A stretch of DNA of 64,000 bases from a virus (taxonomy: Duplodnaviria; Caudoviricetes): IMG/VR virus record IMGVR_UViG_2791355104_000001, one strand, 5' to 3'. The notes under the pieces were generated by a model. The model made no database searches, was not told where the DNA came from, and was given only the letters and a program-made list of their open reading frames with translations. Position numbers and translations under genes: made by a program. Numbering within the stretch: the first letter of the stretch is position 1; every line of letters begins with the position of its first letter. Below are positions 30,062 through 62,785 of the stretch, one piece after another.

Positions 30062-30640
30062 TTAAGTTCTGATATAGTTTTTATCTAGTGACAAAGTAAT
30101 ATATCTCTGTAATAGGAAAGGCTCTTGTCTGTCTCGTAAGTATACCTTAGCTTGAAGTACATACTCACCGTTTGCCAATTCTTTTAAAAGGAATCTATTT
30201 TGTTTTTGCGATCTAGTTTGTATGGGTTCTTCGTAACTTTTATGCAAGAAATACTCAACGTATTTGACTCTATCCAATGCTCCTTTGTAGTAAGAATCTA
30301 CAACAACTCTAATATCGTAATGCGGGATTCCGGTTAAACCAGTTCTTGCTTGAAATTCTGATTGCTTCTCCTCTCGCAGAAAAGAAATGTGGTTCAGAAA
30401 GACGTAGTCTGCAGGAATTTTTTCTGCTTCAATTAGCTCAGTCTGCGCTGGCTGCCCTGCTCCTATGGCAACACTTGCTGGCTCGACAGATAGCTCTACA
30501 TACTCACTAACTTTTAGAGAAAAACCACCCCCTGAATTTTTTGAGTGCATAAAAAGGTTCCATGCGAAGAAAAGCGCAAACCCTATTAAGCAAAATTCAA
30601 TGATCTTAAAAACGACTTCAATCACCTGGCTAATTTCCAT
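30062..30640 (-). CDS. TM-anchored prokaryotic YEATS (pYEATS) domain protein
   Basis: N-terminal TM; RVKYVEYFLHKSY...NRFLLKELANGEYVLQAKVYL fits the pYEATS pattern. Confidence 0.75.
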   Translation of the reverse strand: MEISQVIEVVFKIIEFCLIGFALFFAWNLFMHSKNSGGGFSLKVSEYVELSVEPASVAIGAGQPAQTELIEAEKIPADYVFLNHISFLREEKQSEFQARTGLTGIPHYDIRVVVDSYYKGALDRVKYVEYFLHKSYEEPIQTRSQKQNRFLLKELANGEYVLQAKVYLRDRQEPFLLQRYITLSLDKNYIRT

Positions 30641-32866: not shown

Positions 32867-33103
32867 ATGAAACAAACGTTACTCACAGCAAAAGAGCTCT
32901 CAGCCCGAATTAAATTTAGTGCCAACTACATCAATGCGGAGCTGCGAGACTCAATTTTCATCGAAGGTAAGCATTACATTCGACCATTCAATGGTAGAAA
33001 AATTCTATACATTTGGGAAGAGGTAGAAGCGTATTTGTATGAAAGTGCAGTTCGCAACGCCACATACATTCCCATGGCATCGGGGAGAGTGTGTCATGGG
33101 TAG
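32867..33103 (+). CDS. Excisionase/recombination directionality factor (AlpA/MerR-like wHTH)
   Basis: AAGGAGG RBS; LLTAKELSARIKFS...GKHYIRPFNGRKILY; overlaps the integrase start. Confidence 0.75.
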   Translation: MKQTLLTAKELSARIKFSANYINAELRDSIFIEGKHYIRPFNGRKILYIWEEVEAYLYESAVRNATYIPMASGRVCHG

Positions 33104-34316
33104 CATAAATGTTCGTGAATCCAAGCTCTATCTTGATTTCAGGTACTTAAATACGCGATGTAGAGAGCAAACTGCATTGCCAGATACGCGGGCTAACAGG
33201 AAGAAATTAGAAAAGCTACTTAAGCAAATTGAGTCAGATATCCGCTTAAAATGCTTTGTGTACAGCGATTATTTTCCCGATTCTAAAAAGGCTTCGAACT
33301 TTGTTAAAGATGATGAACAGGCAAGCCGCATAAAGCGAGCGATGCTGGCTACGTATCAAAAGACGTCCAACGCTCTTCAAGGGCACAATAATAGGGCGTT
33401 TGAGGACTTCGCTCAAGAATGGTTTTCTGAAAACGAAGTACGTTGGAAACAGAGCTACGTCAACAGCATGAGAATTTATGTGTTTTCGTATCTCACTAAA
33501 GAGTTTGCGGGTTTTGATGTTAGCGAAATAGATCGCCCGACTATTTTGAAGTACCGAGCCAAACTGATGCAGCCAAAAGCTGATGGTACTCAACTTTCGA
33601 CCGACTTTGTAAATCACATCATGACACCCCTTCGAATGATTTTACGCGAGGCTGCTGACAGGTTTGGTTTCCGCTGCCAATTTGAAAATATTGCGCCGCT
33701 TCGCGTAGACCGGCGAGATGTTAATCCATTTTCACTAGAACAAGTGCTAACGTTTTTGAAAACAGTGCGTGTCGACTTTCGGAATTACTACACAGTGCGC
33801 TTTTTTACTGGCATGAGGACAGCTGAAATTGATGGCTTGATGTGGAAGTACGTTGACTTTGACTTGGGCACGATAAGTATCAGAGAGACATTTGTGCAAG
33901 GTCGAATGGATTCAACCAAAACTCGCGGCTCTATGCGCGACATTCAAATGTCGACATTAGTGAAAGAAGCGCTTCAAAATCAGTTGGAAGTTTCTGGTGA
34001 TGGGAAGTTTGTTTTTCCGAACTCCCAAGGCAACCCCCTAGATCATGGCAATGTAAGAGACCGCGTTTGGAAACCAACATTGAAAAAAATCGGAATGGAA
34101 TACCGTAGGCCTTATGAAACTCGTCATACCGCTGCAACCTTGTGGCTAGCATCAGGCGAGGCGCCCGAATGGATAGCGCGTCAAATGGGTCACGCAAATA
34201 CAAAAATGCTATTTGAGATTTACAGCCGCTACGTACCAAACCTCACTCGAAGAGATGGTTCTGCGTTCGAGCAACTACTTTCAAACGTTCTATGTGAGGA
34301 CAGCCAACACTTATAG
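33096..34316 (+). CDS. Tyrosine recombinase/integrase with arm-binding N-terminal domain
   Basis: LYLDFRY...RCRE arm domain; FFTGMRTAEI, TKT, YETRHT, QMGH and catalytic Y in YSRY. Confidence 0.93.
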   Translation: MGSINVRESKLYLDFRYLNTRCREQTALPDTRANRKKLEKLLKQIESDIRLKCFVYSDYFPDSKKASNFVKDDEQASRIKRAMLATYQKTSNALQGHNNRAFEDFAQEWFSENEVRWKQSYVNSMRIYVFSYLTKEFAGFDVSEIDRPTILKYRAKLMQPKADGTQLSTDFVNHIMTPLRMILREAADRFGFRCQFENIAPLRVDRRDVNPFSLEQVLTFLKTVRVDFRNYYTVRFFTGMRTAEIDGLMWKYVDFDLGTISIRETFVQGRMDSTKTRGSMRDIQMSTLVKEALQNQLEVSGDGKFVFPNSQGNPLDHGNVRDRVWKPTLKKIGMEYRRPYETRHTAATLWLASGEAPEWIARQMGHANTKMLFEIYSRYVPNLTRRDGSAFEQLLSNVLCEDSQHL

Positions 34317-34389
34317 TTTTAGCACTTAGTACACTATGAAGGTGAAATAGGTCGGGGCTTATACTGGTATCAACAGAGAGGGCAGAACG

Positions 34390-35241
34390 ATGAAAATTAA
34401 TTCATTGCAGCCAGAGCTTTCAGAAGCGAAAAAGCTTGCTCGTTTTAAAGGTTTTTACTGCATGGCTGGTTTCGTAGTTAGATTTAACGAGCATGGTAAA
34501 CCGTATTGGGTGATTACGTTAATGGATGCATTTACCCAGTTTGAGATAGTAGCCACGCAGATTGATTGCAATACAAAACACTTTTCTCACTTTGGCTTTG
34601 TTCACGTTGAAGCGACGAAAGTTAAAACAACCGTTGGCGATATATATGTTGCTGACTTTATCTATGCTGTTGATGAAATTCCAGAAAAGTACAGACATAT
34701 ACGCTTAATTCCTAGAGATGCTTCGGCGAATCATGAAGATGTAACGCGCCTGGTTAAAATAGTAGAGTGCGTTGAGTATGAAGCGTTAAGATGCTTTGTC
34801 GCGCACACTTTGATTCAAAGCCGAATAATGGTGCCATTTCTTCGAAACCCAGCAAGCTTAAATTATCATCATAACTATATTGGTGGCTTGTTAAGACACA
34901 GCATACGAGTGGCTGAGTTATTTGCGAAAAACATGGTTGGTAGAAAAGAAGAAAAGGCTTTAGGTATTGTTGGAGCGCTTCTTCACGATATAGGTAAATC
35001 CGTCACATTATCTGAATCTATGATCTACACAGCTACAGGAACAATGGTAAACCATGACTCGTTAACGTTAGAGCTTTGTGCTTCAGCGCTGAAATTACTT
35101 TCCAAAACAAACCCTAGGTATGCTGATATTTTGCGCCATATCTGGACTTGTGAGAAAGAACAGTTTAGGTATTCCACCAAGCTAAATATCGCTTCTCAGA
35201 TTCAACGATTCGATAGAGAAGACTCAAAGGAACATTCATAA
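34390..35241 (+). CDS. OB-fold plus HD-domain hydrolase (YhaM/Cbf1-like)
   Basis: HHNYIGGLLRHSIRVA and ALLHDIGK; N-terminal GKPYWVITLMD OB-like strand. Confidence 0.75.
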   Translation: MKINSLQPELSEAKKLARFKGFYCMAGFVVRFNEHGKPYWVITLMDAFTQFEIVATQIDCNTKHFSHFGFVHVEATKVKTTVGDIYVADFIYAVDEIPEKYRHIRLIPRDASANHEDVTRLVKIVECVEYEALRCFVAHTLIQSRIMVPFLRNPASLNYHHNYIGGLLRHSIRVAELFAKNMVGRKEEKALGIVGALLHDIGKSVTLSESMIYTATGTMVNHDSLTLELCASALKLLSKTNPRYADILRHIWTCEKEQFRYSTKLNIASQIQRFDREDSKEHS

Positions 35242-35316
35242 AGTAGCGAGTTTATGAAATAGCATTATCGTAGCTCTAAAAGAGGCAAATAGGGCCTTCC
35301 AACAGGAGTAACAGTT

Positions 35317-35484
35317 ATGACGGACAAAGATAAAGAGCATGTCGTCGACTTGCAGCATATTGAGTTTGATAAAAACGGCATTGTGCGACTTGCTCTGTAC
35401 CGAAAAGAAACCCAGAGGGCGTTGTGGAAATCTATGCAGCAGTTTAAAGACATCAAACCCACCGTGCCTAAAAACAAGAAATAG
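35317..35484 (+). CDS. 55-aa hypothetical protein (absent from the ORF track)
   Basis: AGGAG RBS; MTDKDKEHVVDLQHIEFDKNGIVRLALYRKETQRALWKSMQQFKDIKPTVPKNKK. Confidence 0.6.
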   Translation: MTDKDKEHVVDLQHIEFDKNGIVRLALYRKETQRALWKSMQQFKDIKPTVPKNKK

Positions 35485-35570
35485 CTTCCTAATCAAAACT
35501 AAATCCACCAAGAGCGAGAATGTCGAGGAAGCTTGTAGCTCAATCAAAACTTACTATTTGAGGTTCTATT

Positions 35571-35690
35571 ATGGATTATCTTACCCAAATTCTTGAATCT
35601 GGCTTAATGATTCCTTTCGCCTTTCTCACCGCGGTTATCATTTTAGGTATTGGCATTCTATTAAAAAAAGACTCTGATGATGAGGAGTAG
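35571..35690 (+). CDS. 39-aa single-TM peptide (absent from the ORF track)
   Basis: GAGG RBS; MDYLTQILESGLMIPFAFLTAVIILGIGILLKKDSDDEE. Confidence 0.55.
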   Translation: MDYLTQILESGLMIPFAFLTAVIILGIGILLKKDSDDEE

Positions 35691-35741
35691 GTTTGCTGTC
35701 TAAAACGCCTATGGAACTTATCGAATAGGCAGTCATCAACC

Positions 35742-35778
35742 CTATGCGTCATTTTTTGCCGCATAGTTGTTTCATGCT
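35742..35778 (+). promoter_or_regulatory. Palindromic operator plus -10-like hexamer upstream of the ftsZ paralogue
   Basis: CTATGCGTCATTTTTTGCCGCATAG-TTGTTT-CATGCT; 20/25 identical to the operator upstream of the WYL gene, with the same 6-nt spacer. Confidence 0.75.
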
Positions 35779-35808
35779 TACAAAACATTAGTTTTCAAAA
35801 GTAAGCAC

Positions 35809-36894
35809 ATGCAAAACATTCGAACCGAAAATATTAATATTCACGTTATTGGTGTGGGAGGCTGTGGTGGCAATGCGGTAAGCAACATGGCCAGTCTTTG
35901 CTCACATGAAAATATCAGGTTTAGCTCTGTTAATACTGATATCGCTGCTTTGCATAGGTGTACAAATCATGAAGTGGTATTGATAGGTGAGGCGACAACA
36001 AAGGGATATGGAGCCGGTGCTGACCCGGATGTAGCTAGTAACGCCGCCATTCAGAGTAAAGATGCCTTAGTCACATTAATAAAAGATGCTGACCTTATTA
36101 TCATTATCGCTGGCCTGGGAGGTGGCACTGGAAGCGGTGCAACGCCAATCTTGATTGATTTAGCCAAAGAGAGTGATATCGATGTGATGTGCTTTGTTAC
36201 GCTTCCTTTCAAAGCTGAGGGAGGCAAGCGAAGCGACATTGCTAGAAACGCGCTTGAGACAATACAAAGCAAAGCTAACGCAACTCTCGTTATGTCTAAC
36301 GATTCATTGCTTTCTGCACTAGATGAAACCGTAGGGCTTCTCTCTGCATTTCGTCATTGTGACACTCAGATGCACAGAATTGTAGAAGCCATTATCGTAA
36401 TGCTCACGAACACGGGTTATATCAACGTCGACATTAACGATTTCAGTCACATTCTTTCTTTAGAAGGGGATACTGCGCTAGGTGTGGGTATAGCTGAAGA
36501 CGACAGTTCATTAAGCGCAGCATTAAAACATGCTTTGGAAAACCCGTTAGTCGACAAGCAAAACATAATTGGGGCGCAGGGTGTTATTGCGCAGCTTACG
36601 TGTAGAGAAGAGCCCAGCTTAGCAATGTATGAAGAAATGCTAGCGACACTCCAATCTTTAGTCGATGGCCCTCAAACTCTTATTATTACAGGCGTAACCT
36701 TATCTCCAGAATTACCACACTTTGGTGAAGTCTTAGTTATCGCCACAGGTGTGCCTTCTAAGGCTCAAAACTTCGAACAAGAGAAAAATGTGATACCCAT
36801 GAAGCAAGCATCTGTGCCGGGCTCATCAAAAAAAGATGCGGCATACTTGGATATACCTGCCTTTGTTAGGCTGCAGGGTAGGGAGTTATCTTAG
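35809..36894 (+). CDS. ftsZ: FtsZ paralogue (island-encoded tubulin-family GTPase, 361 aa)
   Basis: GVGGCGGNAV, GAGADPD, GLGGGTGSG, PFKAEG, T7 loop NVDINDF, C-terminal YLDIPAFVRLQ; start placed at ATG 35809. Confidence 0.93.
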   Translation: MQNIRTENINIHVIGVGGCGGNAVSNMASLCSHENIRFSSVNTDIAALHRCTNHEVVLIGEATTKGYGAGADPDVASNAAIQSKDALVTLIKDADLIIIIAGLGGGTGSGATPILIDLAKESDIDVMCFVTLPFKAEGGKRSDIARNALETIQSKANATLVMSNDSLLSALDETVGLLSAFRHCDTQMHRIVEAIIVMLTNTGYINVDINDFSHILSLEGDTALGVGIAEDDSSLSAALKHALENPLVDKQNIIGAQGVIAQLTCREEPSLAMYEEMLATLQSLVDGPQTLIITGVTLSPELPHFGEVLVIATGVPSKAQNFEQEKNVIPMKQASVPGSSKKDAAYLDIPAFVRLQGRELS

Positions 36895-37931
36895 TCTGAA
36901 GGCAATCGTCTATCTTGTACTACTTCTTGTTGGTAAGCGAAGAATAACCTTTCAGAAAGCTCAACAAAATACTGACGCAGTTTTTGAGGGGCGATGACCT
37001 CTATGTTGTCGCCCAAGCCCCTCAAAAACGCTCGTAATTTATTAGTATCTTTAACTGTCGCAGTCAGCAGAGATTTATCAGCCTGAATAGATTGCGTAAT
37101 TACCTGATCGTCACTCAGTCTGTAGCCGTGAAGTAAAAATAGAGATTTATTTTTAACCAATAGCTGAAGCTTAATGTCTTCTTTGTTGTTCGCTGACAAG
37201 GTTTGGATATTTTCCTGTTCACCAAACTCTTGTTGGCAGTCTTCATCTGTTACGGTAACGTTTCTAATAAACTGTAACGGCAACGCATAGCGTCTTTTGT
37301 GCAGCGAACCAAAAGTGCAGACAAAGAGTTGCCGGCCATCTTGTTTAACCAGCCCCATAGGATTAACTCTGTCGTAGTGCTTCCAAACCATTTCGTTTCC
37401 CCCACTAAAAATACGCTTAATATCGGCAGAAATTTGTTTTTTAAAGAAAATTGCACTTTTTAATCGTTCAAACGAAGTCGCATCTATTTCTGGAGGGATA
37501 AGCGGCTGGGAAACTTGCGAATCCGCCACTGATCTTAGCCAGTTTGTAAGTAAAGAGTCACTATCTTGCTCTAAGACCTGACTCGCTTTTGCAAAGTAAG
37601 GCTGCATTTCTTTAAGTGTAGAATTTGGCAGCGTGGCACCGGACTGTTCAAGCACTTTAAATGCTAGAGCGGTATTTCCATCCATCAAGCTTAAATTGAG
37701 CTTCTTAAAATAAGCGTTTATAAACCAGCCGTAGGGTTTCGAACGCTTATCAACGTCTAACCCAAATAGCCCAATATTTTCTAGGCTGACTAAGTCCCGC
37801 TGCACCGTGCGCATATCGATATTGTGATGGCCACAGTTTTGTAGATTTTCAAAAATTTGGCGGCTTGAAACTTTTCTAGGAGCAGAAGGCACAAATTGAA
37901 GAATGTCGAGCTTGCGTTGAAATGCACTCAT
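36891..37931 (-). CDS. wHTH-WYL-WCX transcriptional regulator (BrxR/DriD/PafBC-like)
   Basis: N-terminal wHTH ...IDMRTVQRDLVSLE; VNPMGLV...LFVC...RYALP WYL domain; LRAFLRGLGDNIEVIAPQKLR WCX. Confidence 0.9.
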   Translation of the reverse strand: MSAFQRKLDILQFVPSAPRKVSSRQIFENLQNCGHHNIDMRTVQRDLVSLENIGLFGLDVDKRSKPYGWFINAYFKKLNLSLMDGNTALAFKVLEQSGATLPNSTLKEMQPYFAKASQVLEQDSDSLLTNWLRSVADSQVSQPLIPPEIDATSFERLKSAIFFKKQISADIKRIFSGGNEMVWKHYDRVNPMGLVKQDGRQLFVCTFGSLHKRRYALPLQFIRNVTVTDEDCQQEFGEQENIQTLSANNKEDIKLQLLVKNKSLFLLHGYRLSDDQVITQSIQADKSLLTATVKDTNKLRAFLRGLGDNIEVIAPQKLRQYFVELSERLFFAYQQEVVQDRRLPSD

Positions 37932-37968
37932 TAGGGAGAACTGGCTTTTGCAATTATGACTTCACCAT

Positions 37969-38005
37969 AGCATAGGGACGGTATGCGACAAAAATTGTCG
38001 CATAC
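37969..38005 (-). promoter_or_regulatory. Perfect 11-bp inverted-repeat operator plus -10-like TATGCT upstream of the WYL gene
   Basis: Minus strand reads GTATGCGACAATTTTTGTCGCATAC-CGTCCC-TATGCT. Confidence 0.82.
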
Positions 38006-38079: not shown

Positions 38080-38586
38080 TCAATCATCATTTTTAAGAGC
38101 GGATAAGATGGACGCTGGGAACTGTGAGCCAAGCGCATTACTAAGATAAAAAGCAGCGGCAATGGGCATTTCATACAGGTATGACTGTGTGACGTTATTT
38201 TCTTTGTTAAATAGTAGTGGGGTACACTGTTTGTTGTAATTGAGGATAAAGTCGTCTTTAAATTCTTCCGTGCTTACAGGCGTCTGCAATAAACGAATAT
38301 TTATATCAATCTTGTTGCCCAAATAATTAGGGTTGGTTGGTTTACGCGTTCCTGGGATTTCACTGTCATACATCGCGGATGTCGCAGTTGCTACGCCTAC
38401 AATGTGCTGTTTGCGGTGCATAAAGACAATATCACCGGGAGAGACTTTTTTAAGCTGCTCCCATCCTGGTCTTTTAAAAGTAATCCCATCTTTACGCACA
38501 CCGAGTTTTGGTGCCCATAAAAAGCTTCCGTCTACGACTTCCTTGTAGCTGCTGTTTACGTTAACCCAAAACACTCTTTTCATCAC
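38080..38586 (-). CDS. Stand-alone EVE/PUA-like (modified-DNA reader type) domain protein
   Basis: FWVNV...FLWAPK...WEQLKKVSPGDIVFMH...IVGVATATS pattern. Confidence 0.6.
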   Translation of the reverse strand: MMKRVFWVNVNSSYKEVVDGSFLWAPKLGVRKDGITFKRPGWEQLKKVSPGDIVFMHRKQHIVGVATATSAMYDSEIPGTRKPTNPNYLGNKIDINIRLLQTPVSTEEFKDDFILNYNKQCTPLLFNKENNVTQSYLYEMPIAAAFYLSNALGSQFPASILSALKNDD

Positions 38587-38671
38587 ATTACCTGCTTACT
38601 TAAAATCAAAGTTCGATTAGCCGACACACGCGGCGATTAATGACAGTTAGTCGGTTCTTTACTGTCTGTTT

Positions 38672-39373
38672 TTAAAAGCCGTCAAAGTCGCTAACGCGGG
38701 CCAAACTATGGCAAAAGTTTGACAATCTGGATGATTCAGATTGAGTCAAATCTGCGGGCAATGCAATGTCAATGGGTGTTTGCGCGTCTAAATAAAACGT
38801 TAAATCAATTTCGTCTGCGCTCAATTCATCTGGTTCATCGTCTTCAGACATAACCGCAGAGTTTATTAAGTCAGAAAGTCTTCTTGCTTGCGATTCGGTA
38901 AATTTAAAAGGCAACTCGATATTGAAATCATAGTGACGCCTTAAAAGGAGAGAATGGCTGTACCAGTCGTTGTCATGCACATCGTCGGTTTCAACAGTCG
39001 GCTCTGGTGATGTTTCGGCTTGCACGTCACGATACGAATCTTCTTGGCTTTGGTTGTCGGGGTAAAGTGCTATCTCAGCTAAATCCAGCATGTCGTAAAA
39101 AAACTTAAATCTTGCTACATTGCTCCGCGAGCCTTTAATGCGTTTACCGCAGTTGCATCCTTCTAGTTTGCCAAGCGCTTTCCAAAGTGAGCGGTTAGTG
39201 GGCTCATTGTAAAGTCCTCTGGCATTCATGTATTTGGCAATATTCTTTAGCGTGATTTCAGAGCGATTCGTTTGGTATTGCTCTGATAGCGTTGTAAAAA
39301 AGTTATGCAAAATAGATTCTTCTGCGACGATACACTGTAAAAGTTCTTTGTTTAGATTGGGATAATCTGACAT
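38672..39373 (-). CDS. Hypothetical protein with a duplicated C-terminal motif
   Basis: GGAG RBS before ATG 39373; two copies of I-x-LP-x-x-(F/L)T-x-S-(Q/E)-x-x-RLS. Confidence 0.7.
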   Translation of the reverse strand: MSDYPNLNKELLQCIVAEESILHNFFTTLSEQYQTNRSEITLKNIAKYMNARGLYNEPTNRSLWKALGKLEGCNCGKRIKGSRSNVARFKFFYDMLDLAEIALYPDNQSQEDSYRDVQAETSPEPTVETDDVHDNDWYSHSLLLRRHYDFNIELPFKFTESQARRLSDLINSAVMSEDDEPDELSADEIDLTFYLDAQTPIDIALPADLTQSESSRLSNFCHSLARVSDFDGF

Positions 39374-39390
39374 GGTTGTCTCCAACTTAA

Positions 39391-40041
39391 TTAATCTTCA
39401 GCGCTAACGAAATTTCTTAATGCATCCAACCCATCGTCGTTGTTTTCATCAACGGTGAGTTCGTCAGTAATTAACTTAACATCGTAGATCTCGCATAAGA
39501 ATTGGTGCCAAGTACTTGCTGTGTAAGCTTCGAACTTCTCGGGTACATCTTCATCTGCATTTATTTCATTTGCATAGGCATTAATAACCTCATCTACCCA
39601 AAATGGAACACGTACAATAGTCTCAAAGCTATCTTTGAAAATCGTGGCCATAGGAGCAATCTCTAACTTGCTTGTTTGCTTGTTGAGTGCGCCAACTCGA
39701 TTGGATATTTGACGTTCGTTGATTTTGAGTTTCTTTTCCTCATACCAGTGTTTGATATCTGAAAAGCTTGCATAGGAATACACATCCTCACGTTGAGCGT
39801 ACTCTTTGGCTGTACTCAAAACCGCGACAATTAGCAAAATTCCATGCTGATTAAATTGTTTCATCGCGTTCACGATTTTTTGCTTTTTCTTATCGTCATC
39901 AATATTGAGACTCACTGAAGTAGCTTGCGATACAGAGTTCTCTGCTGGTAAAGCCGATGTATTGAAAACTTTCTGATAAAAGAGGGCGACCTCATCAGCA
40001 TCGCCAGTGACTTCGATAGTCATTTTTGCGGTTATTGCCAC
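39391..40041 (-). CDS. Hypothetical protein
   Basis: AAGGAG RBS with GTG start; 216 aa. Confidence 0.7.
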   Translation of the reverse strand: MAITAKMTIEVTGDADEVALFYQKVFNTSALPAENSVSQATSVSLNIDDDKKKQKIVNAMKQFNQHGILLIVAVLSTAKEYAQREDVYSYASFSDIKHWYEEKKLKINERQISNRVGALNKQTSKLEIAPMATIFKDSFETIVRVPFWVDEVINAYANEINADEDVPEKFEAYTASTWHQFLCEIYDVKLITDELTVDENNDDGLDALRNFVSAED

Positions 40042-40279
40042 GTAATTAGACTCCTTTGTTCCACGTATTTGTTTAACGAAGTTTACGTAGGTGAATATAC
40101 ACTAAAAGCACAATTTTTGATACATATTTGAATTCAATTTTGGATGTTTTATTGTGTTTAGTTTCGCTGTGTGAAATTATAAACCAAACTGGTAGGTGGG
40201 CTGCGACCTTTAAACTGGTGGTTACACAAAGGTGTGTCAATTGAGTTGGTAATTGAGTTGCATTTTGAAAGCGGCTGTT

Positions 40280-40885
40280 CTATAAAACTCTAAACTCACC
40301 AAGCCATTTTTTTCTGATTACGAAAATATCTTCTGACGTAAAGTTATACGGTTTCGATGGCCCAGGGTTTCTAGAGCTGTCAATAGTAAGCTCGTAAAGT
40401 GGAATGATACTTTTTTCGTTATCGGAATCGAGCATATGTAAGCCTTTGTCAGAAACGTTCTTAACAACTGACCAATGGCCCCCTGTCTGATGGTCGTAGC
40501 CGACAATGCAAACACAGTTTTTTGCGTTATCGGCTTGAGCTATCTGCTCAAGTACTTGTTTTCTATTGCGCGACGTGTCGTTTAACCAATATGGAATAGA
40601 AAAGTCAAATTCATAGAGTTCTTGAGTTTTATCATGGTACATATCGAAATGGGAATTAAGGTAGTCTAGCACTCGGCTTAGCGTATTCTTTATGGTCCCT
40701 CGTCTAGTACCATTAAAATAACTCATATAATCGCCATCTCTTAGGAATGCGGCCAGTACTTGACTAAAAAGTTCAGGCTTATCAAGGCTGGGCTCAAGTG
40801 CGTGGATAGCGTTAACAATGGCATAGAAGCCGCAGGCACCATCTAGCTCTCCTTGCTTGGCTGGTTTTATTCTTTGTAAGCTCAT
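40280..40885 (-). CDS. Papain-fold cysteine peptidase (C39/Josephin-like)
   Basis: QGELDGACGFYAIVNA (Q, C), GGHWSVV (H), LDSD (D). Confidence 0.65.
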   Translation of the reverse strand: MSLQRIKPAKQGELDGACGFYAIVNAIHALEPSLDKPELFSQVLAAFLRDGDYMSYFNGTRRGTIKNTLSRVLDYLNSHFDMYHDKTQELYEFDFSIPYWLNDTSRNRKQVLEQIAQADNAKNCVCIVGYDHQTGGHWSVVKNVSDKGLHMLDSDNEKSIIPLYELTIDSSRNPGPSKPYNFTSEDIFVIRKKWLGEFRVL

Positions 40886-41147: not shown

Positions 41148-44100
41148 ATGACGGACTATAGTAAAGCGAGACAGAGCTTAGTTAGCTGGGTAAAAGATAC
41201 ACTAACGGGCAATGTTTTGAAGGATAACACCTTATGGGAGTCTAATCCTTTTAATTGCTATACAACCGGAATTCTCTACCCAGTGGGTACAGTTTATGAA
41301 TCAGATGACGATGAGCAGTCTGAAGATGAAGACAGTGAAGCCTCAATGGCAAGCGGTGCTAAAAGAGTCCGCTATCAACCCCCATCTTCTATGGGCTTTT
41401 CTTTTTATGTAGATCAAACAACTCAATCAATCCGTGTTTTTTATAGCGGTTTCTCCTTTACTAAAGCTGGAAAACAAAACAACCGTCAGGCGTGGGAGAA
41501 AAATTCACTGGTCCCTGATGAGGGAGAAGAAATAGAGATAGCCCTAGCTGAATCTTCACGCTTCACTGTAATGAACTCAAGAGCCCTTGTAAATGTAAAG
41601 ATAAGGCCCCACGGAACAGGAAAAATAGTCACTGTTTCATTGAGCAATATCAGCTCCCAACCAAAGGAAGAAAAAGAATCGGAAAGAGATGCGACAGCGA
41701 AAAATTCGATTTTTCAAGCTGAGCTTAAGTGTTTCATAAGTAGTGATTCTCTCAAAGATTACCCTAGGGTTAGCCATGCATTACTGAGTGAAGAAGAGCA
41801 AGAGTTAGAGCTACGTTATAAAGATGAACGCGTATATGCAATTGGTCATGGTGTTGCAGTAGATTGGCGAGTAGGGGAGAAAACGACAGAGTTTTTTAGT
41901 GACTTCATGCCAACCGTCGAAGTTCCACAGGTTACTGCCAACGCAGGTAAAGCTAACAAAGTACTAAGCTTTTCATTCTTAGAGTCTATCGAGTCTGATA
42001 GGTCGGTTTTTAACCAGTTGAGCGACTTTATCGATAACTACGAAGACTGGATAGATAGTCAAATTGAATCAGCAGAAACAGGAACAAGTGAAGAGGTAAA
42101 GGTCGCTAAGCGCATTGTTGAGCGTATGGAAGAAGCTAAACAGCGTATGAGAAGCGGTGTATCGAGATTACGTAACGATGACTACGCTCAAAAAGCATTT
42201 GCGCAAGCAAATAAAGCAATGCTTATGCAAATGGAGCTAAATGGCCCACCAAAGAATGGCGAACCTTATTCGTGGCGGCCATTCCAGTTAGCATTTGTTT
42301 TGTTAGCGCTTGAGTCCTCCATTGATGAAGATAATGACTTTAGAGACTGTGTTGACTTGATATGGTTTCCAACCGGTGGGGGAAAGACTGAAGCATACTT
42401 AGGCGTCATGGCGTTGGTTTTTGTTTACCGTCGTCTCAGGTACAAAAATAGCGGTGGAGGCACTGCCGCTATTATGCGCTACACGTTGCGATTACTAACA
42501 TCACAACAATTCATTCGCGCATGTAAAGTAGTATCTGCTTTAGAAATTATGCGAACAGAGTCAGGTGAGTTAGGCGAAGAGCCTTTTAGTGTAGGTCTTT
42601 GGCTTGGCAGTGCTTCATCACCGAATACCTTCAAGCAATCTTTAGAAGTTCTAGATAATCGGAACTATAGCAAGTTTGTTCTACAGGAATGCCCGTGGTG
42701 CTCTACACCATTCTCACATGATAATTTCAGCATTTCAGAAAGCAGCTTCTCATTTAAGTGTCACCACAAAGGTTGCGAATTAGCCAACGCTACAGGAAAT
42801 ACTCTTCCTTTCAAAGTGGTCGATGAAGCGCTGTATGCTTCACCGCCAACCCTCCTTATTGCAACGGTAGACAAGTTTGCTCGACTACCTTGGGAAGACA
42901 GAGCTGTTTCCTTTTTTGGCGGAGCAATAAATAGGCCGCCAGAATTAGTAATTCAGGATGAGCTACATCTTATTTCTGGGGCGCTCGGGTCTATAGTAGG
43001 TTTATATGAAGTTGGTTTTGAAACCATCTTGGTATCGCGAGGTGTTTATCCAAAATTCATAGCCTCTACAGCGACAATCAGACAAGCCAAAGAACAGGTG
43101 CAAGCCTTATTCGGAAGGGAGAAGTCGGCTGTGTTTCCTCCTGTAGGAATTAGGCAGAAGGATTCTTATTTTGCAAAAGAAGTTCCCATAGCAGAAAAGC
43201 CTGGAAGGCTTTACGTGGGATATATGGCATTCGGGCAAACGCGCACTAGCTGTCTTGAGCATCTGGCTGCTGCACTTGTATCAGCACCTAACGCCTGCTT
43301 TGAAGATCCTGAACTTAAAGACGCATGGTGGACCCAAATGGTCTATCACGGCAGCTTAAAAGGCGTGGGAAACAGCAGGACGAACTTTCAAAGTGGTGTA
43401 CCAAAAGTTCAAAGTAGCATGTTGTTCAACGAATTTATGAAGCAACTTGAGCAAACAGATCTCTCTGCTGCGAATAGCTTAAGACATGATAAGGGCGCCA
43501 GAAGTAGCGCGTTTTTTAACGGTGTAGTTCCAAAAACTTTGCTAGGCAATAAAGACAATGTGGAGCTCTTTCAACGATTCTTTCCCGCTAGGCAGTTGAG
43601 GGTGAAGTCGTTGACTAGCAACCAAACAGCAGAAGAGAATGCTCAAGTTTTCCAAGATCTCAAAGCAAGTTATGAAAACAAAGCACATTCTATAGATTCT
43701 GTATTAGCTACAAATATGGTGTCGGTAGGCTTAGATGAACCAAGGCTAGCGTTAATGGTAATAAATGGCCAGCCTTTGACGACAGCCGAATATATTCAGG
43801 CCAGCAGTCGCGTAGGTAGAGGCAATACACCAGGAATTGTTTTCACAAACTATTATAAAACCCAAGCCCGAAGTCTCTCTCATTATGAAAATTTTAGGGC
43901 TTACCATAAGTCGTTTTATCGTTATGTAGAGCCATCAAGCATTACTCCTTTTACACATCAAGTTAGAAAAAGAGCACTTCATGCGTCTTTAGTATCGGCA
44001 TTTCGACATGCCGAAGGTGGCTTACTAAAAAACTCTGATGCGCAAGAACTTACTTATGATAACCCCTTAACACAAAAAATTATTCGATTGATGAAAACTA

Positions 44101-44372
44101 GAATTAAAAGTGCATTAGTGGGGGATAAAACCGAAACAAAACTATTGTTGGAAGAGTGCGAGGAGCACATCGCTCGTCTTATTCGCGAATGGGATAAAGA
44201 GGCATCTTCAGCAACGAACTTAAGATACCTCGCTAAGGACAAGTCTGCTGAAAGTTTATTGGTGTCTTTTGATGATGCTAAAACCAAAACTGGGCTTTGG
44301 GAGACGTTAAACTCCATGAGAAATGTAGAAAAAACAGGTCTCTTTGAGGTGGATGGGGGGCTTGATTTTTGA
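41148..44372 (+). CDS. drmA: DISARM DrmA-like SF2 helicase
   Basis: WFPTGGGKTEAYLG, YTLRLLTSQQF, IQDELHL, ASTAT, EYIQASSRVGR; followed by a DUF1998 gene. Confidence 0.85.
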   Translation: MTDYSKARQSLVSWVKDTLTGNVLKDNTLWESNPFNCYTTGILYPVGTVYESDDDEQSEDEDSEASMASGAKRVRYQPPSSMGFSFYVDQTTQSIRVFYSGFSFTKAGKQNNRQAWEKNSLVPDEGEEIEIALAESSRFTVMNSRALVNVKIRPHGTGKIVTVSLSNISSQPKEEKESERDATAKNSIFQAELKCFISSDSLKDYPRVSHALLSEEEQELELRYKDERVYAIGHGVAVDWRVGEKTTEFFSDFMPTVEVPQVTANAGKANKVLSFSFLESIESDRSVFNQLSDFIDNYEDWIDSQIESAETGTSEEVKVAKRIVERMEEAKQRMRSGVSRLRNDDYAQKAFAQANKAMLMQMELNGPPKNGEPYSWRPFQLAFVLLALESSIDEDNDFRDCVDLIWFPTGGGKTEAYLGVMALVFVYRRLRYKNSGGGTAAIMRYTLRLLTSQQFIRACKVVSALEIMRTESGELGEEPFSVGLWLGSASSPNTFKQSLEVLDNRNYSKFVLQECPWCSTPFSHDNFSISESSFSFKCHHKGCELANATGNTLPFKVVDEALYASPPTLLIATVDKFARLPWEDRAVSFFGGAINRPPELVIQDELHLISGALGSIVGLYEVGFETILVSRGVYPKFIASTATIRQAKEQVQALFGREKSAVFPPVGIRQKDSYFAKEVPIAEKPGRLYVGYMAFGQTRTSCLEHLAAALVSAPNACFEDPELKDAWWTQMVYHGSLKGVGNSRTNFQSGVPKVQSSMLFNEFMKQLEQTDLSAANSLRHDKGARSSAFFNGVVPKTLLGNKDNVELFQRFFPARQLRVKSLTSNQTAEENAQVFQDLKASYENKAHSIDSVLATNMVSVGLDEPRLALMVINGQPLTTAEYIQASSRVGRGNTPGIVFTNYYKTQARSLSHYENFRAYHKSFYRYVEPSSITPFTHQVRKRALHASLVSAFRHAEGGLLKNSDAQELTYDNPLTQKIIRLMKTRIKSALVGDKTETKLLLEECEEHIARLIREWDKEASSATNLRYLAKDKSAESLLVSFDDAKTKTGLWETLNSMRNVEKTGLFEVDGGLDF

Positions 44373-46213
44373 AAAGCAAACAATGGTTTACGCCTGTAAG
44401 GTTTTCTCACCTGACAGGGCACGCTGGTGTAGGTTCAATTGTAAGAGATCAAAATGACTATCTACTGTTTGTTAAAGACACATCGACTTGGCCTATAAAA
44501 AATTTAACCAAACTTCACGCGGTTGAAAGAGTAAAACGACATCTGGAAGTATCCAGCAATTTAGTGTTGCCGCCTGAGGCATCGATTGATGAGACCGCCA
44601 ACCTAAGGATCTCTGGTGGCGCGATTCCTACAGTACGTTTTCCGAACTGGGCTTTATGTAATTTATGCAACACATTGCATCTCGCACCTTGGAAGAATAG
44701 CAGTGTTGAAATAAGCCAAAAGCTGAAATGCCCGACGTGTAACAAAGGAACACTGAGTCAGGTGACATGGTGTGCTGTAAGTAGTTATGGTGATTTAATT
44801 GATGTTCCTTGGCATAAACTCAGTCACCGTAATCCAAAAAACGATGCTCAAACACATTGTCGTTCCAGCTCGAACGAGAGTTACCTAAAGCTAGAGCTTA
44901 ATGAAAGAGGGCGATGGGAAGTTCAGTGCAAGAAGTGTGGTGCCAAGAATTCGTTAGAGATGACGGATTTTCAAAGAAATGTACACAAACAGCCTGGTTA
45001 TCGTGAACGAAAATCGTTAAATGGCGAGGTGGTTACGTATACCGTTATGGAAGTAAACGATCCACGAGTATTTTCGTCAGTTAGCGAAAGGGCGTTAGTA
45101 ATACCGCCAGAGTCAAATATTGACAAAACGTCGTTATTTTTTAGATTAACTCAGCAATCACAGCTGGTTGCTGGCATTAAAGACGCAAAAAGGCCATTGC
45201 AGAAAAAACGAGAAGTTAAGAAAGCGATGAGGGAGCTTAAGTGTTCAGAGGAAGAGCTATTTAGTGCATTGGAAGAAATCGACAGAGGTGATTTAAAGGA
45301 TGCAGTAGATTTTAGCAACATTACACCCGATGACATGATGTTTGATGAATTCGAGGCGCTAACTACAATCCAAAAATTCAATAGAAACGCTGACTTTATA
45401 ACCTCTCATTTAACTAGCGAATGGTCTGACTATCTAGGTTCACTGAGTGAAAGCGGTGATATCAGGCCAGAGATAAACGTTATCGACAAGTTAATTGCCG
45501 TAAACCGCCTTAGGGTTATTGAGGTTTATAAAGGTTTTCAACGAGCAGCTAGCGACGCAGAAGATTTTGACCCCACACCAATAGTAGCTCCAGATTTTAC
45601 CGGTAACCTTGACTGGCTACCGGCGATAGAGCTTTTTGGCGAGGGCATGTTTTTCACGCTTAATAATGAAATTATTGAAAAGTGGGAGCAACACCCTCTC
45701 ATCAGACAGCGAGCTTTAGAAATAGAAACAAGATATCAAGATTCTGAAATAATATTGCCGGATGAGGCTATCCCCACCCCTAGGTTCATTCTTCTGCATA
45801 CGCTAGCACATGCACTTGTAAGAGAGCTAGAGTCCATAGCGGGCTACCCTGCAGCGTCTTTACAAGAACGAGTTTATAGTTCTGCAGAGAAAAAAATGGC
45901 CGGGGTCCTTATCTACACTGCCGTACCTGACATTGCTGGGTCGCTTGGAGGCATAATCGAGCAGGCAAAACCACGTCGATTTATCAAATTATTGGATTCT
46001 GCATTCAAGCAGCTTGAATGGTGCTCGATGGACCCTGTGTGTGGAGACATGGAAGGGCAAGGGCCTTCTTGGTTAAATCGCGCAGCCTGTCATGGCTGTG
46101 TCCTTTTACCTGACACTTCATGTAGTTACAACAATGTATTTCTAGATAGAGTTTTCATTAAAGGTAAGCCAGATGAAGGTATACCGTCACTGAAGGAGTT
46201 TGTGAAAAAATAA
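44369..46213 (+). CDS. drmB: DISARM DrmB-like DUF1998 protein
   Basis: LLHTLAHALVRELES.AGY..ASLQERVY, GSLGG, CSMDPVC...AACHGCVLLPDTSC Zn motif. Confidence 0.88.
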   Translation: MKSKQWFTPVRFSHLTGHAGVGSIVRDQNDYLLFVKDTSTWPIKNLTKLHAVERVKRHLEVSSNLVLPPEASIDETANLRISGGAIPTVRFPNWALCNLCNTLHLAPWKNSSVEISQKLKCPTCNKGTLSQVTWCAVSSYGDLIDVPWHKLSHRNPKNDAQTHCRSSSNESYLKLELNERGRWEVQCKKCGAKNSLEMTDFQRNVHKQPGYRERKSLNGEVVTYTVMEVNDPRVFSSVSERALVIPPESNIDKTSLFFRLTQQSQLVAGIKDAKRPLQKKREVKKAMRELKCSEEELFSALEEIDRGDLKDAVDFSNITPDDMMFDEFEALTTIQKFNRNADFITSHLTSEWSDYLGSLSESGDIRPEINVIDKLIAVNRLRVIEVYKGFQRAASDAEDFDPTPIVAPDFTGNLDWLPAIELFGEGMFFTLNNEIIEKWEQHPLIRQRALEIETRYQDSEIILPDEAIPTPRFILLHTLAHALVRELESIAGYPAASLQERVYSSAEKKMAGVLIYTAVPDIAGSLGGIIEQAKPRRFIKLLDSAFKQLEWCSMDPVCGDMEGQGPSWLNRAACHGCVLLPDTSCSYNNVFLDRVFIKGKPDEGIPSLKEFVKK

Positions 46214-47418
46214 TGGCAGCACGTGTTTTTGAGTTACCCAAAGAGCATGAATTAACAAAAGACCAGAGAATGGCTATTCGACTACCTGCAGATGGGCAAT
46301 ATTTGATTGTTGGTGCTCCTGGTACAGGAAAGTCTGTTGTCGCACTTATGCGCCTTAAAAAATACGCGGCAACAAATGAAACGCTATTCTTGTCGTACAA
46401 CCATGTACTCAATCATGCAAATAAAGTACTAGCCGGGCCTGATGAAAACTTTCATATGAATACTGCGATGTCTTGGCTTTATGATTTTCAATACAAAGCA
46501 GCGGGTGGCTCGCAGGCAAATTTTGAACAAGCCAAGATGCCTGAAATTGAAAATCGCAAACCTGATTATGATGCGTTGATTAATCGTTTTGAAGAGCTAG
46601 GCGCATCGTGCACATCAACGAACTTTATTATTGATGAAGGTCAGGATTTACCGCCAGAATGGTACGAAGCAGTCGAGGCACTTAATGTTGAAAATTTCTT
46701 TATTGTTGCCGATCAAAATCAGCAGATTACCGAACAGAACTCATCGCAGTCAGATTTACTTGATGCTTTGGGTCTAGAAAAAGACGACGTAATTCACCTA
46801 AAAGAAAATTGGCGAAACACCACGCCAATTTCTGCCTTTGCTAATTATTTTTATACTGACAAATCAAGTGAAAAGCCAGCGCTTCCGAAAAAACCATCGG
46901 CTCACGTTCCTATCTTGTATGAATACAAGATGCTAGGTAGCGCAAAAGAGCTAATTTTAAGTTCCTATGATAACGACCCCTCAAAGCTGATAGGTTTATT
47001 TGTTGCTAACGAAGGTAAAAGAGAACATTGGGCAAAATATCTTAAAAATGATAACAAACAAAGACGGGAAGCATCTCCCGTAGTAAGTACCTATTACTCT
47101 AATCAAAAAGGTTCGGTAAACATCGATTTCTCTCAAGGGGGGATTGTTGTTTTAAATGATAAGTCTGTGAAAGGTATAGAGTTTGATGAAGTGTTTATTA
47201 TCATTGACGGTTTTAAAGCAATAGGTAGTGACATCGAGTCGTTAATGAAGCGAATGTATGTCATGGCGTCGCGTGCTCGCGACAGGTTGTTTTTACTAAA
47301 AAGTGAAGTCCAAGAAAGTTTATTTGAAGACATTCTTCCACCCGTAGGCGAAACAATTGAAATTGAGCGAAATGGCCACGTTGAAAAACATGAACTCCTC
47401 AAGAGAATTAAAATATGA
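46213..47418 (+). CDS. UvrD-like SF1 helicase/ATPase
   Basis: GAPGTGKS, IIDEGQD, ENWRNT, KGIEFD, YVMASRAR. Confidence 0.82.
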   Translation: MAARVFELPKEHELTKDQRMAIRLPADGQYLIVGAPGTGKSVVALMRLKKYAATNETLFLSYNHVLNHANKVLAGPDENFHMNTAMSWLYDFQYKAAGGSQANFEQAKMPEIENRKPDYDALINRFEELGASCTSTNFIIDEGQDLPPEWYEAVEALNVENFFIVADQNQQITEQNSSQSDLLDALGLEKDDVIHLKENWRNTTPISAFANYFYTDKSSEKPALPKKPSAHVPILYEYKMLGSAKELILSSYDNDPSKLIGLFVANEGKREHWAKYLKNDNKQRREASPVVSTYYSNQKGSVNIDFSQGGIVVLNDKSVKGIEFDEVFIIIDGFKAIGSDIESLMKRMYVMASRARDRLFLLKSEVQESLFEDILPPVGETIEIERNGHVEKHELLKRIKI

Positions 47419-48953
47419 GCGCTAACAAATGGTTTTTGGTAACCAATACAGAGAATCTTAAATATTACTTCGACTGTAATATGATGGTCGAGAGACAGGC
47501 GTTTGAAGGTAATGCGTATCTTAGAGATATTCAGGCAGAAAGACCTAAAGGATACATTACCCTTAATGATCAAACCAATCTAACAGACGCGCTTGAGCTC
47601 TCTATTTCGGAAGATCCTAATCTTGAAAGTTGTATAGTTGAAGTAGACCTTAGTGGGCTAGAGTCAGCGAGCGTCTATGGTAGGGTTTCTGAAAAGCAAT
47701 ATGAGTTCGGTAGCCTTGACCAGATATTACGTTCTGATGTTGACGAAATTTTAATACCAGCGCCTTTACCTATTGGCATAATAAAAACTGTTTTTCTGAA
47801 AAATGCTAAAGCAAGCGATTTATTAAAAAGCGAGCTTACGCGCCTATATGGCGTACTTCCTCCTAAATACATTACGCAAAATGCCAAACTATTTAAATCT
47901 GGGAAGCAAGGTAGTTTGCCTTCTGAACTAGACATAGACTCATCAGTAAGCTGCATTAGTTTGAATGAAATTGCTGACATTGCACTAGATTATAAAAAAG
48001 CTGAGGCACTTGGTGGTGCTTTAGCACTGGCATATTACCAAACAAAAAACGGCAGCCTTTCATGTGAACTATTCAAGAAATTTGTAGAACGTTCTGATGA
48101 GCCTATCAGTGACACTATCATCGCTTTTCAGAACTGGCTAGTTGATGCCAACCATACAAGCGAACTCGATTCTTTCTATAAGAGAGTGCTAGACATAGCC
48201 TCTAGTGAATCTGACTTTGGCACTATTCAGCACGATTTGCTTAATTCGTTTGAAAATAAAGATGGCATACCAGACGCTTATACCAAAGTCGCTGGCCTTG
48301 CTAAGCGGTTAAGGCAACTCGTGGATAGAACATATGAGGGGGACCTAGACACTTACTTCTCCAAGCTTATAAATCATTATGAGAGTGAAGAAGAGGGCGG
48401 CTCAAAACCCTTTTTATTGATATCAATGATTTTTGTACGTGACCACACAGAAACTGCTTTAAAGTTCTATCATGAAAGTTTTACTGAAGAAGATTACTTT
48501 CTAATAGCCGCTTTCTATGGACTTTTTCAGGGTATAAAGCGAGTGCCTGAACGAGTTCGCAGTGTGAGTGGTCTTCGAAATTGGGTGTCGCATCACATGG
48601 TCGTTTTGTTACATAAAACGACGGGGGCTCGCGTTACTATTCAGAAAGCGCCAGTTCAACCGCCACTGATTTACCAAAAATACATTAAGGATACACCCAA
48701 CTCTAAGTTACAAGATAATTTACAGAAGTTTGTTTTATTTATGGGAATGAATGAACAAGAGGTACTTTCTTGGGAGCTAAACACTAAAGAAGAGTATCGG
48801 GTTAAAGGAAGCGCTATTACTTTTTCTACTCGCCCTAAGCTTGTAGCAAAGGTATTGTCTTCAAACTTTGAAAAGTCGATGCGCCATAAAACAATAAAAG
48901 ACGCTGATGAATTGTTCGATATGAACGAAGCGCTAGATATATTCAAGGCGTAA
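47415..48953 (+). CDS. Hypothetical protein (512 aa) in the drmAB operon
   Basis: ATGA-coupled to the upstream helicase; no confident family. Confidence 0.75.
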   Translation: MSANKWFLVTNTENLKYYFDCNMMVERQAFEGNAYLRDIQAERPKGYITLNDQTNLTDALELSISEDPNLESCIVEVDLSGLESASVYGRVSEKQYEFGSLDQILRSDVDEILIPAPLPIGIIKTVFLKNAKASDLLKSELTRLYGVLPPKYITQNAKLFKSGKQGSLPSELDIDSSVSCISLNEIADIALDYKKAEALGGALALAYYQTKNGSLSCELFKKFVERSDEPISDTIIAFQNWLVDANHTSELDSFYKRVLDIASSESDFGTIQHDLLNSFENKDGIPDAYTKVAGLAKRLRQLVDRTYEGDLDTYFSKLINHYESEEEGGSKPFLLISMIFVRDHTETALKFYHESFTEEDYFLIAAFYGLFQGIKRVPERVRSVSGLRNWVSHHMVVLLHKTTGARVTIQKAPVQPPLIYQKYIKDTPNSKLQDNLQKFVLFMGMNEQEVLSWELNTKEEYRVKGSAITFSTRPKLVAKVLSSNFEKSMRHKTIKDADELFDMNEALDIFKA

Positions 48954-48956
48954 AAT

Positions 48957-52644: not shown

Positions 52645-52653
52645 ATCGCTTCC

Positions 52654-59209: not shown

Positions 59210-59220
59210 GTTCTATCCCT

Positions 59221-62773: not shown

Positions 62774-62785
62774 GATTTACTCCTG

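Follow-up and report, generated by a model that had tools for sequence, protein, structure and literature searches.

A WYL-family regulator and a divergent FtsZ paralogue share a -35-less operator-promoter architecture: a candidate division-control module of marine Gammaproteobacteria

WYL-family activators that sense single-stranded DNA (ssDNA) are emerging as an SOS-independent route from DNA damage to a block of cell division, with DriD-DidA and DdaA-AciT as the described cases, whose effectors are small and lineage-specific. Here we analysed a stretch of 64,000 nucleotides (IMG/VR virus record IMGVR_UViG_2791355104_000001, assigned to Duplodnaviria; Caudoviricetes; hereafter the window), in which the same type of switch appears to be wired to a complete FtsZ paralogue, FtsZ2, whose gene converges with that of a WYL-family regulator. 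DriD binds the site ATACGAC-N7-GTCGTAT, which a first-pass annotation of the window, made from the sequence without database searches, had given correctly (PMC13004042), and the didA site reads ATACGTCCGTTTCTGGCGCAT (PMC13004042, PMC10853764); Arg37 and Arg41 of DriD read the two guanines of each CGxC half-site, Glu40 contacts C1, and the centres of the sites are AT-rich (PMC10853764, PMC13004042). In promoters that have no -35 element, DriD sites lie across its usual position and keep a constant distance to the -10 element, and the three-helix bundle of the protein (residues 79-133) is used for polymerase contact (PMC13004042). By our own count on the oligonucleotides printed in that paper, 8 nt lead from the site to CAAGGT at didA, CAATCT at CCNA_03891 and CAAGCC at bapE. 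The Acinetobacter regulator DdaA recognises CGAC-N7-GTCG and turns on aciT, which encodes a division inhibitor (PMC13010146), and the in vivo motif of PafBC is tGTCgg(N10)tA(N3)T (PMC8635444). A full-text literature search returned no paper linking a WYL regulator with an FtsZ paralogue, in agreement with the first-pass annotation, whose author knew of no such module.

The two genes and their putative control elements occupy the following positions in the window:

35744..35764, plus strand: FtsZ2 operator, 21 bp, ATGCGTC-ATTTTTT-GCCGCAT, core CGTC-N7-GCCG, read from the sequence
35773..35778, plus strand: -10-like hexamer CATGCT of the FtsZ2 promoter, 8 nt past the 21-bp operator
35809..36894, plus strand: ftsZ2, encoding a divergent FtsZ paralogue of 361 aa (Pfam Tubulin 1.3e-35, FtsZ_C 1e-11)
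36891..37931, minus strand: WYL-family regulator of 346 aa with winged helix-turn-helix (wHTH), three-helix bundle, WYL-like barrel and WCX domain, convergent with ftsZ2
37969..37974, minus strand: -10-like hexamer TATGCT of the WYL promoter, 8 nt past the WYL operator
37983..38003, minus strand: WYL operator, 21 bp, ATGCGAC-AATTTTT-GTCGCAT on the minus strand, read from the sequence

Read along transcription, the ftsZ2 side consists of the 25-mer CTATGCGTCATTTTTTGCCGCATAG (35742-35766, plus strand) followed by TTGTTT and CATGCT (35773-35778), with the ATG of the ftsZ-like gene at 35809, and the WYL side, on the minus strand, of the 25-mer GTATGCGACAATTTTTGTCGCATAC (38005-37981) followed by CGTCCC and TATGCT (37974-37969), with the WYL ATG at 37931. 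Both 25-mers are T-rich at the centre. The first-pass annotation had placed these palindromes correctly, and direct reading bore out both the 20/25 match between them and their position 6 nt from a (T/C)ATGCT hexamer, over the -35 region. The 23-bp pattern TATGCGNCA-N5-TGNCGCATA, searched with up to 2 mismatches, matched the window twice, both times at the gene pair, with 0.03 matches expected from shuffled sequences; the whole-genome scan that had been proposed as a check, carried out on the complete 4,314,189-bp genome of Alteromonas mediterranea type, returned the same two places only, and a reversed control pattern returned none. The names carried by identical or nearly identical proteins put the host in Alteromonas mediterranea or a close relative of it. 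The exact 14-base core TGCGNCA-N5-TGNCGCA occurs at four places genome-wide, two of them the module promoters, which are also the only ones of the four with a NAnnnT hexamer 8 nt downstream and facing the gene. Since the other two core matches, near 1011890 and 3194873, have G+C-rich centres and are without a -10 hexamer at +8, they are probably due to chance. A sigma-70 consensus scan found no -35/-10 pair at either window promoter; at the FtsZ2 promoter there is no -35 match 16-18 nt upstream of CATGCT, and the bases at the would-be -35 position (CATTTT) fall inside the operator.

Promoters of homologous loci were oriented along transcription, and the 230 nt nearest each start codon were searched for the best match to the operator. 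Conservation of the motif in such loci had been named beforehand as a check on the proposal, and the operator was indeed kept in 27 of 30 FtsZ2 promoters which, like most WYL promoters, carry a 21-bp site (NTGCGNCA-N5-TGNCGCAN), exactly 8 nt and then [T/C]AnnnT. The 8-nt spacing was found at the WYL promoters of nearly all Alteromonas, Colwelliaceae, Shewanella and Aeromonadaceae loci examined, and the operator centre is T-rich on the transcribed strand in most loci. The length of the spacer is constant and its sequence is not conserved, as illustrated by FtsZ2 promoters of the window (agttgttt CATGCT), A. hispanica (aaatggtg CATTCT), Thalassotalea (cttacatg TACACT), Pseudoalteromonas (cttgttgc TATGCT) and Shewanella (cttgaggt TAGGCT). 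Constant spacing with free intervening sequence is the phylogenetic footprint of a factor that needs precise placement relative to the -10 element. The autoregulation claimed in the first-pass annotation agrees with the operator before the WYL gene here, but it is not universal, as Pseudoalteromonas and a further 7.4-Mb genome have the operator before ftsZ2 only. Its central claim, that one WYL regulator links both promoters, is strongly supported by this comparative evidence, and direct control of both promoters by the WYL protein is very likely, as far as sequence comparison can indicate.

FtsZ2 adjoins a homologous WYL gene in Alteromonas, Colwellia, Cognaticolwellia, Thalassotalea, Pseudoalteromonas, Shewanella, Oceanimonas and the 7.4-Mb genome. 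The pair is convergent in the first four genera and tandem in Pseudoalteromonas (WYL then FtsZ2, on a large second replicon), Shewanella (japonica group), Oceanimonas-type genomes and the 7.4-Mb genome; in the last three, identity falls to 29% for the WYL protein and to 31% for FtsZ2. A search of other genomes for ftsZ-like genes convergent with wyl, also proposed at the outset, found a convergent WCX-bearing gene in every FtsZ2 context examined in the Alteromonas, Thalassotalea and Colwellia groups, and a search from the WYL side gave 16 loci (Alteromonadaceae, Colwelliaceae and one Pseudoalteromonadaceae metagenome-assembled genome, MAG), 15 of which have a convergent FtsZ2. FtsZ2 homologues are 58-99% identical in the Alteromonas group and ~40% identical in Thalassotalea, Colwellia and Cognaticolwellia, and below this level the matches are ordinary FtsZs. 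The flanks vary by locus, comprising nitroreductase, SatD and topoisomerase III genes, exonuclease I and GIY-YIG genes, or ABC transporter and sensor kinase genes. The pairing survives changes of gene order, context and divergence, which argues for a functional link, and judging by these comparisons the gene pair is a portable two-gene cassette and a real regulatory module. The WYL family was present in 80 of 401 genomes sampled from the GTDB order; in eight other species of the genus, a WYL homologue occurred in four, with ftsZ2 beside it in three of these, and the module is therefore accessory. At present the members of the pair are annotated merely as 'cell division protein FtsZ' and 'WYL domain-containing protein'.

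In a MAG contig (L013:1050-1979) whose locus DNA is 91-92% identical to window positions 34015-37899, the WYL gene and ftsZ2 are separated by a gene for a 309-aa protein that begins with a cold-shock (ssDNA/RNA-binding) domain; this insert is co-directional with the WYL gene and takes the place of window positions 36884-36954. In a Colwellia MAG (L028:5017-6066) the WYL gene and its operator are intact and the place of ftsZ2 is occupied by ~1 kb without an open reading frame (ORF) of at least 80 aa; ftsZ2 is lost or decayed there.

The regulator matches the Pfam WCX domain (PF25583, 5.1e-7, 30.4 bits against a cut-off of 23.9) and, over residues 142-328, the PADLOC WYL model (3.3e-12). Its AlphaFold2 model (mean predicted local distance difference test score, pLDDT, 69) comprises a wHTH at residues 1-71 (helices 3-12, 23-32 and 40-53 plus a beta-hairpin at 58-71; pLDDT 74-93), which aligns with the wHTH of DriD, a three-helix bundle at 85-136 (helices 85-100, 103-122 and 127-136), a beta-barrel at 151-231, which over 165-231 likewise aligns to DriD, and the WCX domain at 252-340. 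Foldseek ranked DriD first (8tp8, E 3e-12, full length), followed by PafBC and then by BrxR and CapW at ~1e-5. In the recognition helix (R41-T42-x-Q44-R45), R41 and R45 do not vary among 15 homologues down to 28% identity, and Q44 is conserved in at least 90% of them; the spacing of R41, Q44 and R45 is that of R37, E40 and R41 in DriD, with Gln replacing Glu. Within the barrel, K165 and R173 are conserved basic residues. The likeness to DriD first noticed at the operator core holds for the -35 position, the fixed -10 distance, the fold and the base-reading residues as well.

FtsZ2 scores 247.8 bits against TIGR00065, the equivalog of housekeeping FtsZ, under the cut-off of 295.2. The host's housekeeping ftsZ lies elsewhere in the genome, and FtsZ2 is 31% identical to its product; the ftsZ2 gene is not in a dcw cluster after ftsA, the canonical context that is seen in a comparison locus (L012). 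In the alignment, the FtsZ2 family retains GGGTGSG, NTD, NVDxxD, the T7-loop aspartates and a C-terminal peptide of YLDIPAF type; in the window protein the GTP-binding motifs, the T7-loop aspartates and the C-terminal YLDIPAFVR are all present, and the linker is short (~28 residues). The C-terminal peptide is drifting in Shewanella. A signature GVGGCG[G/C]N (GVGGCGGN in the window) distinguishes FtsZ2 from canonical FtsZ (GVGGGGGN). In a maximum-likelihood tree with canonical FtsZ from gammaproteobacterial hosts and seven diverse outgroups, all WYL-linked FtsZ2 sequences fall on one side of a branch with 100/98 support and all sampled canonical FtsZs on the other, and the Alteromonas FtsZ2 clade has a very long stem. 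On this sequence evidence, the split and the long stem mean that FtsZ2 is an old, fast-evolving paralogue family and no recent copy of the host gene. Phage records held no close relative of FtsZ2, the best matches being ~34% identical and no better than cellular FtsZ, so that a recent phage origin is unsupported, and no PADLOC model matches FtsZ2. Vibrio chaetopteri (L010:236-15185) has a member of the FtsZ2-side clade without WYL neighbour or operator, in a block of genes of one direction that also encode an ankyrin-repeat protein, a Ser/Thr kinase with Sel1 repeats, a MotA/ExbB-like protein and a PP2C phosphatase.

These data suggest a mechanism in which a WYL dimer would bind the 21-bp palindrome before ftsZ2 and, in this genome, before its own gene, and in which the ligand-loaded WYL domain would lead to recruitment of RNA polymerase to the -35-less promoters in the fashion of DriD and PafBC. 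Since the site stands in for the -35 element, with exactly 8 nt between it and the -10 element, the regulator most likely recruits RNA polymerase, and promoter geometry together with the fold makes activation rather than repression probable. The analogous regulators DriD, PafBC, CapW and DdaA suggest that the ligand would be ssDNA arising from damage, replication stress or phage infection, and on the strength of that analogy we narrowly favour ssDNA or DNA damage as the signal. Induction would yield a burst of the regulator, through positive feedback, together with FtsZ2, which has a short linker and is predicted to be able to polymerise and, through its intact tail, to dock on FtsA/ZipA. FtsZ2 might then compete with housekeeping FtsZ for membrane anchors and partners, and interfere with or re-programme the Z ring via the shared FtsA/ZipA-binding tail, so that division is perturbed or paused; it would in this case be the functional counterpart of DidA under DriD and of AciT under DdaA. 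We hold the regulatory core, namely direct activation of ftsZ2 and of its own gene by the WYL protein, to be moderately likely; that the output of FtsZ2 is a division brake, as the analogous systems suggest, is a tentative proposal with a little less than an even chance. The Pfam SulA model matched nothing in the genome, a weak negative, the model having matched only 1 of 14 control genomes.

Several observations weigh against this mechanism. The regulator is only ~16% identical to DriD, and a profile search of the PDB sequences with the WYL alignment gave only spurious bromodomain matches and not DriD, BrxR or CapW, so that kinship with DriD rests on fold and not on sequence. Pfam WYL (PF13280) matches neither the window regulator nor anything else in the whole genome; distant relatives of the regulator (L029, L030, L044) do match it. 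Oceanimonas-type loci have the operator before the WYL gene only and none directly before ftsZ2. The stop codons of ftsZ2 and the WYL gene overlap (36891-36894) with no terminator-like hairpin between them, and joint induction would therefore entail head-on transcription and polymerase collision. DriD controls several damage-response promoters, and the targets of DdaA include recA, ssb, uvrA and further repair genes (PMC13010146), whereas the operator with a correctly placed -10 element occurs at the two module promoters only in the 4.3-Mb genome, where no multi-gene DNA-damage regulon of the window regulator was found. Moreover FtsZ2, to judge from its motifs, looks fully functional and not crippled, an unobvious design for an inhibitor.

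The operator spans -41 to -21, where a repressor would equally block RNA polymerase, and CapW, although it senses ssDNA, is a repressor. The WYL protein may thus be a CapW/BrxR-type repressor that sits on both operators until a signal such as ssDNA frees ftsZ2 and its own gene. Such a role would suit the place of the module here, in a defence island, with an integrase on one side and DISARM-like and BREX genes on the other, CapW and BrxR being WYL-WCX regulators of such islands and CapW sensing ssDNA (PMC11662680, PMC9122601), with structures that are significant fold matches (E ~1e-5). A repressed promoter must, however, be strong by itself, and neither promoter has a usable -35 element; the distance from operator to -10 is invariant to 1 nt in more than 25 diverged promoters, which is typical of activators that position polymerase and is not needed by repressors; the fold, three-helix bundle included, is nearer to DriD and PafBC; and most related loci lie outside defence islands. 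We therefore regard repression as unlikely. That some other host factor binds the palindromes, or that they serve as a terminator or repeat element, without relation to the WYL protein, is highly improbable. Each could form a 9-bp hairpin with a T-rich loop, but two copies in 4.3 Mb make no repeat family, no T-run follows the stems, and both sites are upstream and not downstream of genes, grounds on which a terminator or repeat element was rejected. The sites also move along with the WYL gene into unrelated contexts and gene orders, WYL relatives with other cargo (nucleases in Betaproteobacteria, a 241-aa protein in Alteromonas) use the same site, and the same core is read by DriD, whose recognition helix is matched by that of the window regulator.

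The function of FtsZ2 itself allows another reading, in which it would be an active, inhibitor-insensitive or decoy FtsZ, triggered by ssDNA via the WYL protein. As a stand-in it could sustain division when housekeeping FtsZ is blocked by a damage-induced or phage inhibitor, taking over or re-siting division, and as a decoy it could soak up inhibitors and neutralise FtsZ-targeting phage factors. All GTP-binding and T7-loop residues and the partner tail are kept, suggesting that FtsZ2 could build a working ring, and its surface is strongly diverged (31% identity, long branch), as expected of a protein escaping inhibitors aimed at FtsZ; its accessory distribution and its position among anti-phage systems in this genome point the same way. 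Against this stand the short linker and the degenerating tail in Shewanella, which suggests that full divisome function is not always maintained. We know of no phage FtsZ inhibitor for these hosts, which also counts against a stand-in or decoy. The known WYL-activated division genes, didA and aciT, encode inhibitors (PMC9186387, PMC13010146). On balance a stand-in or decoy role, in either form, is doubtful; if true, a mobile cassette would give bacteria a second, conditional cytokinetic system, and FtsZ2 would be an FtsZ-based stress or immunity effector of a new kind.

From roughly 28 kb onward, the G+C content of the window falls from ~0.48 to ~0.40. This low-G+C region holds an integrase (33039-34316), an HD-domain protein, the gene pair, four genes of unknown function, DrmA/DrmB-like helicases and a type 1 BREX system, and its content thus places the pair in a defence island in this genome. 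The island setting described in the first-pass annotation therefore holds here, but the module is not island-specific, since it occurs in at least seven named genera and often in non-island contexts. The pair lies 3 kb from the DISARM-like and 13 kb from the BREX genes; four other genes stand between these systems (DrmA/DrmB 41148-46213, BREX 50626-63277) and the WYL gene, and the pattern search of the window found no operator copy at the DrmA/DrmB or BREX genes.

Among the neighbouring genes, those for the DrmA/DrmB-like helicase pair precede genes for an SF1 helicase, a protein of unknown function and a NERD-helicase (41148-50528), with no methylase seen in that segment, and the type 1 BREX set (50626-63277) comprises BrxL, PglZ, a PglX-like protein and BrxC. 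The four co-directional ORFs between the WYL promoter and the DISARM-like operon (38080-40885, minus strand; 168, 237, 216 and 201 aa) matched nothing in Pfam, NCBIfam or PADLOC. Between the HD-domain gene and the ftsZ2 operator lies a 39-aa ORF (35571-35690, plus strand), hydrophobic apart from its acidic tail and also without a family match; the surrounding region is common to the MAG contig L013, and the other FtsZ2 loci examined have unrelated upstream genes. A prokaryotic YEATS domain occurs in the 192-aa product of a gene on the margin of the low-G+C region (30062-30640, minus strand).

Distant WYL relatives share the operator and the 8-nt rule, and the sequences indicate that this is a family of cassettes with swappable cargo. 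In two Betaproteobacteria (L029:3182-6814, L030:3802-6462), WYL relatives at 28-31% identity occur with the operator ATGCGACA-N5-TGTCG upstream of operons encoding PD-(D/E)XK (PDDEXK_4) or DUF2779 nucleases. In another Alteromonas species (L044:683-2592), a WYL relative at 32% identity that matches Pfam WYL is followed by a 241-aa protein of no known family, whose gene has its own operator, 8 nt and TAGTTT; derivation of this cargo from FtsZ was rejected (hhalign probability 0.8%). Aeromonas-type loci (L047, L050-L054, L058-L060) have a WYL gene preceded by the operator, 8 nt and TAG[G/C]AT, with no ftsZ2 beside it. A WYL homologue was found in 27 of 28 Aeromonadaceae genomes sampled; in the Aeromonas representatives examined, the stand-alone copy is apparently autoregulated, judging from its promoter, and the Aeromonadaceae protein could be that family's DdaA/DriD-like damage regulator.

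The locus can thus be read as a candidate WYL-activated division-control module with an unexpected new effector and a dedicated two-promoter regulon; the pairing persists in at least seven named genera of marine Gammaproteobacteria as well as in one further genome. It offers a testable case of a conditional second FtsZ, several of its hosts being cultured (Alteromonas, Pseudoalteromonas, Shewanella). The promoter rule of DriD and PafBC, namely an operator half-site followed by N10 and TAnnnT in the absence of a -35, would also come to cover a third branch of the family, a distant one, and this rule is usable for predicting WYL regulons elsewhere.

Among known systems, DriD-DidA of Caulobacter crescentus is the best structural match, with the same order of wHTH, three-helix bundle, beta-barrel (WYL-like in the window regulator) and WCX at near-identical residue numbers. 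Both window sites carry CG[A/T]C-N7-G[A/C]CG and fit XCGXC-N7-GXCGX, the pattern read in the DriD/PafBC class by Arg, Glu and Arg of the recognition helix, with Gln in place of Glu here; the DriD operator has the same core, CG[A/T]C-N7-G[A/T]CG, with an AT-rich, T-biased centre, and lies over a missing -35 at a fixed -10 distance, as at the window promoters. The controlled gene acts on cell division there, as the ftsZ2 cargo would here, but DidA is a small membrane protein that targets the late divisome (PMC9186387) whereas FtsZ2 is a full-length FtsZ paralogue, and the window module, unlike DriD-DidA, is mobile and accessory. DdaA likewise belongs to the WYL activators, is of gammaproteobacterial origin, recognises CGAC-N7-GTCG and responds to DNA damage by inducing a division inhibitor; its aciT site, however, lies ~160 bp upstream of the gene, and AciT is unrelated to FtsZ (PMC13010146). 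The grammar of the mycobacterial ssDNA-sensing WYL activator PafBC, the second-best fold match, which acts without a -35 element ('sigma adaptation'; PMC8635444, PMC11804915), is matched by TGTCGC(N10)TATGCT at the WYL promoter and TGCCGC(N10)CATGCT at the FtsZ2 promoter, with the difference that PafBC is a heterodimer or fusion that uses a single half-site and serves a large regulon, whereas the two-site regulator of the window has a full palindrome and is presumably a homodimer. BrxR and CapW are defence-island WYL-WCX regulators that bind promoter palindromes, and the window module is likewise island-borne (PMC9122601, PMC11662680), but they are weaker fold matches and shorter (~265-290 residues), they head the operon they repress or are divergent from it, which the window regulator does not and is not, most loci related to the window module have no nearby defence genes, and the window promoters are without a -35 element. 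SulA and other FtsZ-directed inhibitors, and the truncated FtsZ paralogues of Hyphomicrobiales, are stress-linked or accessory tuners of the Z ring, some of the paralogues having been proposed as division modulators in a 2026 study that names neither WYL nor the taxa of the window module (PMC13732431); FtsZ2 differs from those truncated paralogues in being full length, with GTPase motifs, tail and a dedicated WYL switch.

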